NCBI RefSeq assembly: GCF_988242995.1
Contig: NZ_OZ547043.1
Strand: one strand, 5' to 3'
Length of the DNA stretch: 64,000 nucleotides
Below, piece after piece: positions 11,529-15,831 of the stretch. Below the pieces are notes generated by a model. The model was not told where the DNA came from, searched no databases, and was given only the letters and a program-made list of their open reading frames with translations. A program made the translations under genes and the position numbers. Position 1 is the first letter of the stretch. Every line of letters starts with the position of its first letter.

Positions 11529-11963
11529 TTACAGCCTCTGTAACGGATTATCAGCCCTGGCATCTTCCGACGGCACCTCCTGCCGCCCCCACGCCCTGCT
11601 GTATACCCCGGTACCGCAGCGTGGGCAGCACTTTTCCCCCTCATAATCTTCGTCACACATCACACAAAACCACTTTCTCACCTTCACCGTATAATCCGGA
11701 ACCGTCATGCCCTGCAGATGCAAACGACGGGCCTCTTTCTCCGCCGGGTCAAGCCAGGTACATCGCAGCAGGATTTTTTCAGCGACAGTCATCTGGTCAT
11801 GTTCAAACCACGGTGGTTGTCCGTCATTGCCCCGCTGAAGTGTTAACGGGCATCCACAGGACACACAGCACAAAACGTCCTGTCGGTTGTGCTTCGCAGC
11901 TTCTTTCGCCGTAACAAAATGGCCTTTGCTGTCATTCGCCATATAACAGTTCAGAATTCGCAT
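11529..11963 (-). CDS. Cys-rich putative zinc-ribbon protein (paralogue of the upstream gene)
   Basis: Start placed at ATG 11963, preceded by AGGAGG; shares the pattern CxxCG…PWFEH…CxxC…C…CxxCG with the 11951-12358 product. Confidence 0.5.
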   Translation of the reverse strand: MRILNCYMANDSKGHFVTAKEAAKHNRQDVLCCVSCGCPLTLQRGNDGQPPWFEHDQMTVAEKILLRCTWLDPAEKEARRLHLQGMTVPDYTVKVRKWFCVMCDEDYEGEKCCPRCGTGVYSRAWGRQEVPSEDARADNPLQRL

Positions 11964-12358
11964 ATTTCCTCCTGAGTTGTCCGGGGAATACTGAATCCTC
12001 CGGTCTGGCAGTGTGTGCAGTACTGCTCCCCATAATAATCGTGGTGACATTGTCTGCAGTGCCAGCTGGCTTTACGCACCACGGGTAAGGCATCCGGTAC
12101 GAATTGCTGCAGACGTTTAATCAACTGTATTTCTCTGCGCTCCGGCCTGACATAAGGGCACTGTTGACCGTGCTCTGTCAGCCTGTCGTCAGTGTGTTCA
12201 AACCAGGGAAGTTCAGTGTCGTATTGCGGATGGTATCTGAGTGCACTGCCACACAAGTGGCAGGTGTAGTGAGCATAAGGTGCGGCCTGTGCAGTACGGG
12301 CGCCCGTCAGACGTCCGTTGCTATCAAGAGCGATAAAGGATTTTGCGTACATAGTCAT
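11951..12358 (-). CDS. Cys-rich putative zinc-ribbon protein
   Basis: 135-aa ORF with a GAGGA Shine-Dalgarno; motifs CHLCGS…PWFEH…CRQCHHDYYGEQYCTHC; its stop overlaps the start of the downstream paralogue by 13 nt. Confidence 0.5.
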   Translation of the reverse strand: MTMYAKSFIALDSNGRLTGARTAQAAPYAHYTCHLCGSALRYHPQYDTELPWFEHTDDRLTEHGQQCPYVRPERREIQLIKRLQQFVPDALPVVRKASWHCRQCHHDYYGEQYCTHCQTGGFSIPRTTQEEICEF

Positions 12359-12611
12359 ATTCCTCAGCCGCCAGACGACACGCAGGCAACAGCCGTCCCG
12401 GTACGGGCAGCGTGGTCAGGGTGTGAATGGCGGTTCAGTTAAAATCTGGACTGGAGTTTGGGTAAAGCAGGCTGGTTGCTGTTACAGCACTGTGGTTGTC
12501 ACACAATGGAACACTGACGTAAAAAACAGTCAGTGGACGAGTGGATACATCGTTGCCGCCAGACAACAACCCATACTTTTGGTTTGCCGGATATTGGCGC
12601 GCCAGTCGTGC

Positions 12612-13181
12612 TCAACTCCGGCTACAGCCAAAATTGCGCTCACCGGTGCAGTGAGCTTTGGTATGCTCCTTCGCCAGATAGTCAGCACGTTCCAGCACTT
12701 GCTGAAAGCCGGTGTCATCATTACGCGCCAGCCACACCGCCGGCCAGGCCGGAAAATGCACCAGCGTGGCATGGCACCCGACATCCACTCCCAGGGCACT
12801 GCACCACGCCTGTTTAATCATCCCGGCCAGAGACTCCGGAGCGCGGTAATCACCGGCACGACACCAGGTATCCCGGTTGACCAGCAGCATCAGGTGATAG
12901 TGTTTTTTACCTTTGAACTCCCCAAACTCCCGGGCCCAGACGTAATGCAGGGTTGTGGGATGCACGCGTTTACCTTCCCGATGCTTACGTTTCTGGTAAG
13001 CGTCGATTCGGGCTTTCAGGGCATTGATGAAGCGGGATATCACAGCTGCGTCCGTTGCTGCCGGTACATCCGGGAGACGCAGGTCAACCCGCAATGCCGT
13101 CAGGCGGGGATGAACATTCAGTGCGTGCCGCACCGTCTCACGAATACGTTGCTGCCAGAAGGGGTTGTATTTGTAGGTCAT
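12612..13181 (-). CDS. YagK/YfjJ-family (inovirus Gp2-like) protein
   Basis: Start placed at ATG 13181 (MTYKYNPFWQQRIRET…), preceded by GGAG; family assignment from memory of prophage-remnant proteins. Confidence 0.55.
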   Translation of the reverse strand: MTYKYNPFWQQRIRETVRHALNVHPRLTALRVDLRLPDVPAATDAAVISRFINALKARIDAYQKRKHREGKRVHPTTLHYVWAREFGEFKGKKHYHLMLLVNRDTWCRAGDYRAPESLAGMIKQAWCSALGVDVGCHATLVHFPAWPAVWLARNDDTGFQQVLERADYLAKEHTKAHCTGERNFGCSRS

Positions 13182-14927
13182 GGTTAAATCTCCGTATGGT
13201 TCATACGGAATAACCACGTCGTAAAAAATGCGCAGAGTCCCTGAGGTGACCTCCGGCAGGACACTGTCTCAGGCACTCTGTGATAACCCGAACGGTCGTC
13301 TCCGGACTGGCGGTTGAATTTTCAGCGTCGTTTTTTAATGTAAAAAACCGGTTACGGGTAAGGCTGTGAGGAGGGAGTTATGGTGATACGCAAAAAGAAG
13401 TGCAGGGACTGTGGAAACGCGATTACTAATAATACAGAGCCTGTTTAAGATTCTGTGTAAATGCCTTGTCTCAGACGTGACCGTCCAGGCGGTCACCGAA
13501 CTCGATAATAAAGCGGCTCATTGCCATTCGCCAGTCCTTCAACGGCATCGTCCAGTGTGTTGCCCGTATTGTGGTTCTGTCGACCCCTTCGGCTACTACC
13601 GGAATACAGACCGTATCGTTACCATACTGCTGGCGCTGATTATTGTGGTCCTGCTGACTACTGTCAGCGTCAGTGTGTGTATACTGTGTAGCTGGTGAGA
13701 TAACGGTTCATGTATCCCCTGAGCTGACAGTGTACCGTGTATATTAAGCGTAACCGACAGGTTCTCCTTCATACCATATTAAATTTTCCAGGTATTGCCG
13801 CTGCCTTATTTCGTCCCATACAGGAAAACTCATCTGGGTTTCTGACAAATACGCGAAACTCACAGCCCCTCAATATCAACCACACGTTGTAAGCCGGTAA
13901 TACCTGAAAATCAGCCTATTACCGCCCACGCCTCCGGCACCATTCCCTTTTGATTTCGAATTCTTTGTTGTCGCTATACCGCTTAATGTTCCCGGTCCTC
14001 CGGTGCAGATAACACCGGAGTCATCGTAGCGCTGCTTCAATATTAAGGTGACATATTTCCAGACGGAAGCCGGCGCGCGATCGTAAAGTTTGTTCATTGT
14101 CAGTTCTGCCAGCCGGTTGTCAACGGCAGAGTTAAAGGCTTCCAGCTCCGCAAGGGTAAGTTTATAACGCGTGTGGGAATTCACTTTTCCCGCGTCTCCT
14201 GACGTATTACGGGCTGCCACTTACCTGGTGTCCCGCAATACAGCCTTAGTGTTCCGTTATCGGGGATCCGGACGCACCGCAACAACCGGGGAAGTATTTC
14301 TGGTTTAGAGCAGTGTCAAGAGGGATTTCTCAGCCCCTCACTCACCGGCTCAGTCTCAGGGCAGGAGCATTAATACGCTCAGTTCATGTCTTATACAGGA
14401 ATGGGCACAGGGGGAGCTGGCGTGTCACTGCTGATTTTACGCATCAGCGTTCATGTATCTGCACTCTGATACATGAACGATTCACAGCGCTCTGTTACCG
14501 GAGAGATTTACTCTCTTAGCTTACTCTGGCAAATCCTTTACGTTACTCTCTGATGACTTCTTATATTTATAATACCAATCAGACAGCCTTATCCCATCGG
14601 TGATATCAGTCTCCTCCTCGCCAGGAACGGGCTGACTCACTGTAACCACCTCCGAAAACAACTCTGCAATTATCAGAACGCCTGCTTCTCTCCCTGTCCT
14701 CACGAAAACTATCCCCTCTTTATCGCGCGTGCGTGCGGAAGCATCTTTTCGCAACAACCACCCGGTATACCGGTACGGCTCAGCCACCGCAACCTCCCCG
14801 TTTATCTCCTGGCGGTCACATTCCCGATTATTTTTTACGTTTCTCCCCGGTTGTTATGCCGGTGAAGGTGGCGCGCTGTTTTCATGACCACACCGGCTGG
14901 TTTAACAACATCCGGAGGAACATTCTC

Positions 14928-15134
14928 ATGGCTACCCCAGTTTCACTGATGGATGACCAGATGGTCGACATGGCATTTCTCACTCAACTGACCGGCCTGA
15001 CAGATAAGTGGTTTTACAGGCTCATCAGGGATGGGGCCTTTCCGGCTACCATCAAGCTGGGCCGCAGCTCCCGCTGGCTGAAAAGTGAAGTGGAAGCCTG
15101 GCTACAGGCGCGTATTGCACAGCCCCGCCCGTAA
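14928..15134 (+). CDS. alpA: AlpA-family phage/island transcriptional regulator
   Basis: 68-aa product from internal ATG 14928 (MATPVSLMDDQMVDMAFLTQLTGLTDKWFYRLIRDGAFP…EVEAWL) with a helix-turn-helix typical of AlpA. Confidence 0.75.
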   Translation: MATPVSLMDDQMVDMAFLTQLTGLTDKWFYRLIRDGAFPATIKLGRSSRWLKSEVEAWLQARIAQPRP

Positions 15135-15228
15135 TTTCTGACCGTTATCCGTTCACCCGCAGCAGACGTAATCCCCGGCCTGCCGGCGGCATTCTGCTGC
15201 CTGTTATATCCCCGTGAGGAATATGAAA

Positions 15229-15831
15229 ATGAAACAACAGTATCAGACCCGCTACGAATGGCTCCACGAAAGCTACCAGAAATGGCTGACCGGCTTCACC
15301 CGGCACGCCGTATCCTGGGGCGTGTGTCATCCGAATATCTACTACTTCCATAATCTGACGCCCGGTTGGGTGTCATTCAATGGTGAAAAACCGGAGATTG
15401 CCATCGTACCCCAGAGCCTGCACCGGCTGATTTATGGCCCTGACAAACGGGCCACGCCGCCCCTGGATGATGATCTGATTGTGAATTTATGCACCAGTGA
15501 ACATCTGCTGGTTCATCATCCGATGCTGGAAGGCATTCTCCTGTCTGAATGTGAACGTCTGAGGCAGCGTTCTCTGGCAAATAAACTGATCAGCCTCTTC
15601 CGTCAGTTTGGTGGCACGGAGTTGCGCCTCAAACTGGTCTGGCTTTGCTGGCTTGATTTAATGACCGGAAACAGCCTTGAAGACTGGAAAGAGAACCTGA
15701 AACGGAAATCAGAAAAAGAGCTGGAGGAATGGATCATCAACCGTCAGAGGCAGAGCGCAGCACTGACGGATCTGATGGATCAGTACGTGCTCCTGGCATA
15801 CCGCACAACGGTTGACGATAGCCGCAACTGA
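15229..15831 (+). CDS. Hypothetical protein (possible HNH-like motif)
   Basis: ORF just downstream of alpA; start at ATG 15229 with GAGGA upstream; segment CHPNIYYFHNL…FNGEKPEIAIVPQSLHRLIYG loosely resembles an HNH nuclease core. Confidence 0.5.
   Translation: MKQQYQTRYEWLHESYQKWLTGFTRHAVSWGVCHPNIYYFHNLTPGWVSFNGEKPEIAIVPQSLHRLIYGPDKRATPPLDDDLIVNLCTSEHLLVHHPMLEGILLSECERLRQRSLANKLISLFRQFGGTELRLKLVWLCWLDLMTGNSLEDWKENLKRKSEKELEEWIINRQRQSAALTDLMDQYVLLAYRTTVDDSRN

Follow-up and report, generated by a model that had tools for sequence, protein, structure and literature searches.

Genes for small accessory proteins adjoin those for HUH initiators and relaxases; examples are the genes of the relaxosome accessory factors and filamentous-phage gene X and gene V, which follow gene II. 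Other HUH enzymes, the IS91-family transposases and Helitron Rep, carry zinc-finger modules in the same polypeptide. Here, we describe a gene pair for predicted zinc proteins in a stretch of 64,000 nucleotides from contig NZ_OZ547043.1 of RefSeq assembly GCF_988242995.1 (the window). The two genes, termed ZnA and ZnB, are adjacent on the minus strand and lie 3' of YagK1, a YagK/YfjJ-family gene whose product is predicted to be a nuclease of the HUH superfamily. The pair is catalogued and extremely common, it belongs to a recognizable family of unassigned function, and it forms part of the backbone of AlpA-type, tRNA-integrated enterobacterial islands.

Similar to the HUH-associated accessory proteins, ZnA and ZnB are small and are encoded in the same orientation immediately 3' of an HUH-type gene; unlike them, they show no sequence or fold similarity to those proteins, neither a nick site nor an origin was detected, and a partnership with the nuclease is suggested only by synteny and a single fusion. 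The likeness to filamentous phages extends to the annotation of the YagK family, which is named "inovirus Gp2 family" and shows weak REP_ORF2-G2P matches. In contrast to IS91 and Helitron, nearly all Zn loci encode the zinc modules as polypeptides of their own, and the YagK-like domain of the one fusion has lost both the HUH and the tyrosine motifs. In their way of working, ZnA and ZnB may resemble HUH accessory subunits or the zinc modules of IS91 and Helitron, as an analogy rather than a homology. The closest described sequences are those of the Pfam families DUF7828 and Zn_ribbon_11, with RefSeq members of which the window proteins are sequence-identical; the family descriptions at hand hold no operon context, A/B orthology, fusion or leader.

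The small N-terminal CxxC…His-type finger pattern is also seen in the N-terminal zinc finger of CoiA (CoiA_N, PF25164) and the related DUF7830. A weak but recurrent hidden Markov model similarity to CoiA_N was detected in 11 of 35 diverse family members (best E 6.9e-5). However, ZnB scored 12.7 bits (E 0.092) against a CoiA_N threshold of 26.3 bits and ZnA gave no match, while the PD-(D/E)XK nuclease domain of the CoiA family was found in neither protein by Pfam or NCBIfam, the two zinc domains covering the proteins fully. CoiA also differs in its competence-gene context, whereas ZnA and ZnB reside in a genomic island and carry an extra C-terminal ribbon. Membership in the CoiA family was rejected on the basis of the score below threshold and the missing nuclease domain.

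The ZnA and ZnB proteins and their gene junction

The features of the module in the window are as follows.

11529..11963, minus strand: ZnB, 144 aa (open reading frame list and annotation)
11951..12352, minus strand: ZnA, 133 aa from the annotated ATG (open reading frame list and annotation)
11951..11973, minus strand: putative ZnA–ZnB coupling junction (sequence; conserved in relatives)
12368..12433, minus strand: conserved 66-nt leader (alignments; covariance-model match 12345..12435)
12612..13181, minus strand: YagK1, 189 aa, YagK/YfjJ family, RefSeq WP_000221555.1

A first-pass annotation made from the sequence alone had described two adjacent minus-strand genes with the same cysteine-rich architecture, without recognizing the family. 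The architecture was borne out by shared motifs and two shared Pfam domains, and the family is in fact a named one in both Pfam and RefSeq. ZnB is identical to WP_001221615.1 and ZnA to WP_000270986.1, each of which occurs on more than 1,000 contigs. Both proteins are members of DUF7828 (PF25165; ZnA 108.1 bits, ZnB 105.8 bits, E about 1e-31, gathering threshold 25.7 bits) and of Zn_ribbon_11 (PF11682, formerly DUF3279; ZnA 35.3 bits, ZnB 66.4 bits, threshold 24 bits), which in ZnB extend over residues 4-89 and 93-128, respectively. The two domains were found together in all 35 diverse family members.

ZnA displays the motifs C31-x2-C34-G, PWFEH (H53), C65 and C99-x2-C102…C112-x2-C115-QTG, and ZnB the corresponding C33-x2-C36-G, PWFEH (H55), C68 and C100-x2-C103…C113-x2-C116-GTG. 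The predicted zinc ligands are C31/C34/H53/C65 and C99/C102/C112/C115 in ZnA, and C33/C36/H55/C68 and C100/C103/C113/C116 in ZnB. Among the 35 members, C33, C36, F53, H55, C100, C103, C113 and C116 (ZnB numbering) are invariant, and C68, W98, G109 and G119 nearly so. The DUF7828 domain is thus predicted to hold a Cys2-His-Cys site (CxxC…WFEH…C) and the C-terminal domain to be a Cys4 zinc ribbon, with the two CxxC knuckles on beta-hairpins and the Cys4 site that generally define this fold. Structure prediction, which had been proposed as a check, gave a confident AlphaFold2 model of ZnB (mean predicted local distance difference test score, pLDDT, 88.6). On the basis of these residues, both proteins are predicted to bind zinc.

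An exhaustive profile search of 1.84 billion cluster representatives matched only 275 clusters at E ≤ 1e-3, indicating a small family, and all members whose source could be traced came from an enterobacterial context. NCBIfam, PADLOC and PHROGs returned nothing useful for ZnA or ZnB, and a search of PDB sequences with the family profile gave chance matches only. No functional study was found in a literature search on the Zn family (DUF3279/DUF7828/PF11682) and YagK/YfjJ, in which no paper mentioned the family; a paper on the evolution of the pheV island does not mention these genes either. The CP4-44 pseudogenes yoeG and yoeH of K-12 were examined as potential remnants and show no similarity.

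The two proteins share 32% identity over 125 aa (BLASTP, E 4e-16), so that the common motifs are not chance matches, as the pairwise alignment suggested in the first-pass annotation was meant to decide. They are true paralogues; the tandem duplication proposed there, however, is neither local nor recent. In a neighbor-joining tree, the A-type and B-type proteins formed separate clades that each extend across Enterobacterales genera, with B' as a third, divergent clade; the duplication is thus placed long before E. coli. The A-then-B gene order was observed in Siccibacter, Superficieibacter, Yokenella, Mixta, Tenebrionibacter, Rosenbergiella, Trabulsiella, Pseudocitrobacter, Citrobacter amalonaticus, Enterobacter and Serratia, in a Klebsiella IncFIB/HI1B plasmid and in metagenomes. 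Where a locus has just one Zn gene, it is of the B or B' type; at least one such locus, from Raoultella (L006), has kept a truncated A remnant. The A-type protein of Pseudocitrobacter and Citrobacter amalonaticus (L016 5612..6010, L017 5609..6010) keeps the N-terminal zinc site and has lost the ribbon cysteines. A further variant, P0072 (238 aa), contains two DUF7828 domains in tandem followed by one zinc ribbon; this could represent a natural covalent "A-B" arrangement, compatible with heteromer formation.

The ZnA stop codon (TGA, 11953..11951) and the ZnB start codon (ATG, 11963..11961) overlap in a stretch of 13 nt, at exactly the coordinates first reported, and the reported Shine-Dalgarno sequences are present before both genes. 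That of ZnB (AGGAGG, 11973..11968) falls within the 3' end of ZnA, 4 nt before the ATG, and that of ZnA (GAGGA) precedes the ATG at 12352 by 8 nt. An alternative in-frame ATG for ZnA is found 6 nt upstream, at 12358; Shine-Dalgarno spacing and orthologues both favor 12352 as the start. The junction ATGCGnnTnCTGA with its upstream GAGG is conserved in nine loci, namely the window (W) and the fetched relative loci L003, L007, L008, L011, L013, L014, L022 and L023. Variants were observed as a 10-nt overlap in two loci, L016 and L017, and as separated genes in another two. As the junction is conserved across genera, the overlap is a maintained feature, and it fits translational coupling and equimolar production of ZnA and ZnB; the coupling implied by the first-pass annotation is put forward here as a possible reading of the overlap and its internal Shine-Dalgarno sequence.

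Both are real genes under purifying selection. The pairwise ratio of nonsynonymous to synonymous substitution rates (dN/dS) is 0.16-0.3 for ZnA and 0.07-0.2 for ZnB, and within E. coli (window versus L003) it is 0.16 and 0.07, respectively. These values, overall 0.07-0.3, contradict the possibility that the open reading frames (ORFs) are untranslated remnants.

The YagK1–Zn operon and its leader

The first-pass annotation had placed the pair upstream of the YagK/YfjJ-like gene. By direction of transcription the order is the reverse, and the pair lies downstream (3') of YagK1 in an operon-like module. YagK1 matches PF11726 with an E of 4.9e-48, in agreement with the family first suggested, and shows a weak Pfam match to REP_ORF2-G2P. 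In 22 diverse YagK1 sequences, residues E85, H94, H96, W126, Y168 and K171 are invariant. The HUH motif is present as H94-Y-H96 on a predicted strand (94-102), and the catalytic tyrosine as Y168-x2-K171 on a predicted helix (156-170) located C-terminal to the HUH motif, which is the Rep-type order; the predicted fold is that of an HUH nuclease. YagK1 is basic, with an isoelectric point of 9.8, and a search of PDB sequences with its profile gave chance matches only. YagK1 is therefore predicted, from motifs and modeled fold, to be a Rep-like nuclease of the HUH superfamily with the HUH motif preceding the tyrosine.

Co-occurrence of the pair with YagK-family genes, another suggested check, was pronounced. 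A YagK-family ORF was found on the same strand just upstream of the Zn genes in 26 of the 28 loci that were fetched through Zn proteins or the leader and that offered enough upstream sequence, the two exceptions being a deletion (L002) and a rearrangement (L020). The Zn pair was likewise present in loci reached in the opposite direction, from YagK1 homologs in Enterobacter and Serratia. The canonical order, based on annotation of a Klebsiella plasmid (L033) by the Prokaryotic Genome Annotation Pipeline (PGAP) and seen also in Enterobacter, is YagK1, an AlpA-family regulator, ZnA, ZnB, a second YagK-family protein (YagK2; PF27752, UCP030791) and DUF2913. An ORF of about 44 aa encoding a mini zinc ribbon (…RWKCPRCRRQYCGARPCPVCFR…) is conserved between the operon-internal AlpA and ZnA, without PGAP annotation in L033. 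The full ancestral operon comprises YagK1 with its motifs intact, then AlpA, the mini zinc ribbon, the apparently structured leader, ZnA, ZnB, YagK2 and DUF2913, whereas that of the window is reduced to YagK1–leader–ZnA–ZnB. The internal AlpA and the mini zinc ribbon are deleted both in the window and in Mixta (L022).

The positions of the two additional genes in relative loci are given below.

Mini zinc-ribbon ORF (not in the window): L007 about 5290..5425; L008 1033..1314; L012 4180..4332; L023 5171..5452
YagK2 ("inovirus-type Gp2 protein"): L007 6496..7044; L008 2353..2901; L013 6426..7061; L014 6336..7040; L023 6496..7044; L033 9493..10059; L034 6151..6717

YagK2 is encoded directly 3' of ZnB. 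It retains neither the HxH nor the YxxK motif, which makes it a likely pseudo-nuclease; in L033 and L034 it is followed by a DUF2913 gene. A physical or functional link between the two families is suggested by P0163 (L004 2797..4161), a single 454-aa ORF in which a Zn protein is joined to a C-terminal YagK-like domain (hhalign against YagK: probability 87%, E 4e-6, 134 columns). In this domain the catalytic motifs are degenerate, "YFLH" replacing "HYH". P0163 follows AlpA and a 350-aa YagK, and it occurs on one Logan contig only and is possibly an assembly artifact.

In Salmonella enterica (L036), a diverged Zn-like pair (5743..6156 and 6201..6473) follows YagK1 and AlpA. Neither protein has precomputed Pfam matches, and the same motifs are clearly present: one protein combines CxxC…H…C with WxCxxC…YGxKxCxxC, and the other is ribbon-less, consisting of the N-terminal domain only. 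The Zn family is therefore wider than Pfam matches indicate. Variable genes on the opposite strand were observed just upstream of YagK1, including an AAA_15/AAA_21 (OLD/Gabija-like) ATPase in Enterobacter (L034 1929..3755) and genes with a weak RepB-RCR_reg match in Salmonella (L036 987..1805) and Serratia (L038 1..712). A cargo or defense hotspot may adjoin the module on its YagK1 side.

Immediately 5' of the ZnA Shine-Dalgarno sequence lies a 66-nt leader that is nearly invariant across genera whose coding dS is near 1, and for which a stem-loop is predicted. A covariance model built from 13 sequences (R1) matched the window with 96 bits (E 1e-23) and identified the leader before every A-type gene searched, as well as diverged copies in two Trabulsiella loci and in the Raoultella locus with the A remnant. 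The model found no leader in the YagK1 loci that lack an A-type gene (L004, L018, L029). In the model-fitted alignment, 92.9% of cells were paired compared to 23-44% in slid controls, and six pairs were changed on both sides. However, RNAalifold on the unfitted alignment of 13 leaders found no net covariation (term +0.56); the structure is supported only by the model-fitted alignment, which includes two more divergent sequences. A structured leader is thus plausible, with moderate support. Neither strand of 11200..15300 matched an Rfam family at E ≤ 1, and consensus scans for a sigma-70 promoter in the leader and for a terminator after ZnB performed no better than on shuffled sequences. The leader occurs once in the window, and a scan of IMG/VR for variants returned E. 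coli-like copies plus one chance match. Because the leader tracks the A-type gene, including remnants in L006, L012 and L015, rather than YagK1, its interpretation as an HUH nick site or origin was set aside, and it is read as an expression-control element for ZnA–ZnB. It may represent an undescribed cis-regulatory RNA or an operator.

Distribution and island setting

DNA of the pair was detected in 3,821 of 5,426 complete E. coli genomes, with at least 80% coverage in 2,985. These genomes carry it in a median of two and a maximum of seven places, almost all of them chromosomal, and only 32 of 72,556 plasmid records contain it. A tblastn search of 50,697 phage records returned no match. As the module is conserved while the flanking cargo varies between loci, it is assigned to the island backbone and not to the cargo. 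Comparable islands in Pseudomonas have AlpA and an "inovirus Gp2-like" protein among their likely core genes (preprint 10.1101/2024.08.29.610337). Copies of the pair identical to those of E. coli were also observed in assemblies labeled as unrelated taxa (L005; L020, a metagenome-assembled genome of "Collinsella sp."; "Veillonella sp."; "Pseudomonas aeruginosa"), which most likely reflect contamination through binning or assembly rather than true distribution.

The window covers a pheV (tRNA-Phe) genomic island with a P4-type integrase, alpA, Ag43, YeeS/YeeT and CbeA/CbtA-type genes, and a group-2 capsule cluster; a type II secretion system is adjacent. An E. coli chromosome that is 99.9% identical (NZ_CP145099.1) is annotated in RefSeq with exactly the same coordinates for all three minus-strand genes, under the product names "zinc-ribbon domain-containing protein" (ZnB), "putative zinc ribbon protein" (ZnA) and "inovirus Gp2 family protein" (YagK1). 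The neighbors of the module are listed here.

6647..6722, plus strand: tRNA-Phe (annotation), the island attachment end together with the integrase
6920..8185, plus strand: P4-type tyrosine integrase (annotation)
8978..11266, minus strand: IS66-family element with tnpA/B/C and perfect 13-bp terminal inverted repeats GTAAGCGTACAGC, bounding the module
12512..12535, minus strand: inverted repeat CACTGAC-N10-GTCAGTG, 3' of the YagK1 stop (sequence)
14928..15134, plus strand: alpA-type helix-turn-helix regulator of the island in divergent orientation; relatives have an extra alpA copy within the YagK1–Zn operon

The pair had been reported as lying beside an IS66 terminus and in reversed orientation relative to the integrase and alpA; the end of the element is indeed 263 nt from the ZnB stop, and both of those genes are on the plus strand. 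The element has no matching target-site duplication (CTTTATAT versus CACTATTT), which suggests an insertion sequence-associated deletion or rearrangement beside the module. It occupies the place where relatives have YagK2 and DUF2913, and homology of the window with the locus L003, which is free of the insertion sequence, stops at 11360. A second IS66-family element (ISEc22-like) is located at about 30.4-32.8 kb of the window. The inverted repeat, placed between YagK1 and the leader, is not terminator-like; a similar sequence occurs in the Mixta locus L022. A 289-aa plus-strand ORF (12318..13187) runs antisense to YagK1 and the leader and is without RefSeq annotation; a spurious shadow ORF is the most likely explanation.

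Possible roles of the pair

We tentatively propose, at less than even confidence, that ZnA and ZnB act together as a zinc-dependent pair with an accessory or regulatory role in the backbone's HUH nuclease module. The overlapping stop and start codons would couple translation so that the two proteins are made together, probably to work as a hetero-oligomer. Within the YagK nuclease module, such a complex would be an accessory or regulatory subunit; by contacting nucleic acid or the (pseudo)nuclease, it might direct or restrain the nicking of island DNA. The module itself would process island DNA by Rep-like initiation or by a non-canonical, relaxase-type nicking after AlpA-controlled excision, as a step in replication or mobilization, and the leader would be the likely control point for expression of ZnA–ZnB. 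The synteny with YagK, the degenerate YagK2 encoded downstream and the Zn~YagK-like fusion P0163 support this proposal. Zinc binding, heteromer formation, the partnership with YagK and the role in DNA processing are what we infer from the observed sequence, conservation, synteny, fusion and fold evidence.

Several observations weigh against this proposal. Synteny and one single-contig fusion show linkage and not mechanism, the literature holds no experimental datum on any family member, and no structural analog was found. The near-neutral isoelectric points of ZnA (6.7) and ZnB (6.9) are unlike those of typical DNA-binding proteins, and the A-type protein of C. amalonaticus and Pseudocitrobacter lacks a ribbon. 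Moreover, most YagK-family genes lack Zn partners, and none are known beside yagK and yfjJ in K-12, which indicates that the Zn pair is not generally required for YagK function.

Instead, the two proteins could be zinc-finger regulators of island genes, transcriptional or post-transcriptional, acting with or downstream of AlpA and without a direct role in YagK catalysis, for example by autoregulation through their own leader or by control of the integrase and other backbone genes. We regard this as rather unlikely. In the canonical operon the Zn genes follow directly after an AlpA-family regulator, and the conserved and apparently structured leader lies exactly at the start of ZnA and goes with the A-type gene, not with YagK1. 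Zinc ribbons often bind nucleic acids, and the weak similarity to the CoiA zinc finger described above points in the same direction. However, the near-neutral isoelectric points again count against such a role, neither a helix-turn-helix nor another known regulatory domain was found in ZnA or ZnB in Pfam or NCBIfam, and no target site was identified, the leader being present only once in the window. The strict linkage to YagK on both sides and the fusion would also be left unexplained by regulators of this kind.

Another possibility is that YagK1–ZnA–ZnB is itself accessory cargo, such as an anti-phage defense system with an HUH effector and zinc-ribbon sensors, an anti-defense system or a toxin–antitoxin-like addiction pair. 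A small overlapping gene pair beside a nuclease resembles defense or toxin–antitoxin layouts, and defense genes adjoin YagK-family genes in some islands, as exemplified by the AAA_15/AAA_21 ATPase in Enterobacter. In K-12, yfjJ is flanked by yfjK and yfjL. These two are the AbpAB defense genes, and the paper describing AbpAB mentions yfjJ (PMC10732053). Nevertheless, PADLOC-DB v2 contained no significant match, the only hit being PDC-S64 at E 0.063 for ZnB and none being found for ZnA and YagK1. No toxin or antitoxin domain is present, the pair does not have the features of a type II toxin–antitoxin system, and mutual paralogy of its two members is atypical for such pairs. Considering further that the module is conserved next to variable cargo, occurs in several copies per genome and is absent from the phage records, a cargo function is improbable. 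Decay would be another explanation, in which the E. coli module, stripped of the internal AlpA, mini zinc ribbon, YagK2 and DUF2913, is left with genes that are unexpressed or useless. The version in the window is indeed reduced and abuts an IS66 element without target duplication, many database entries are truncated or chimeric, and some lineages have broken B genes or ribbon-less A genes. This explanation is nonetheless very improbable, given the low dN/dS within E. coli, the intact zinc ligands, Shine-Dalgarno sequences and leader, and the presence of intact copies in about 3,000 complete genomes.

The gene pair itself is ordinary, consisting of RefSeq-identical proteins of named Pfam families. 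No earlier description was found of the operon's anatomy, of YagK2 as an apparently catalytically dead protein, of the fusion or of the leader; each is unsurprising singly, and they are hypothesis-generating. Taken further, the accessory role proposed here for ZnA and ZnB leads to a bolder and unlikely reading, in which YagK1–AlpA–(mini-Zn)–ZnA–ZnB–YagK2–DUF2913 would be a self-encoded and hitherto unrecognized HUH DNA-processing machine of the very common non-conjugative, tRNA-integrated enterobacterial islands, with a Rep-like initiator or non-canonical relaxase, a ZnA/ZnB heteromer for site recognition or licensing and a structured RNA leader gating its synthesis. If true, such a machine would explain replication after excision, or mobilization, of "immobile" pathogenicity islands. 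The family of ZnA and ZnB is uncharacterized, yet in most E. coli it belongs to the conserved backbone of islands in which capsule, adhesin and toxin genes are found.

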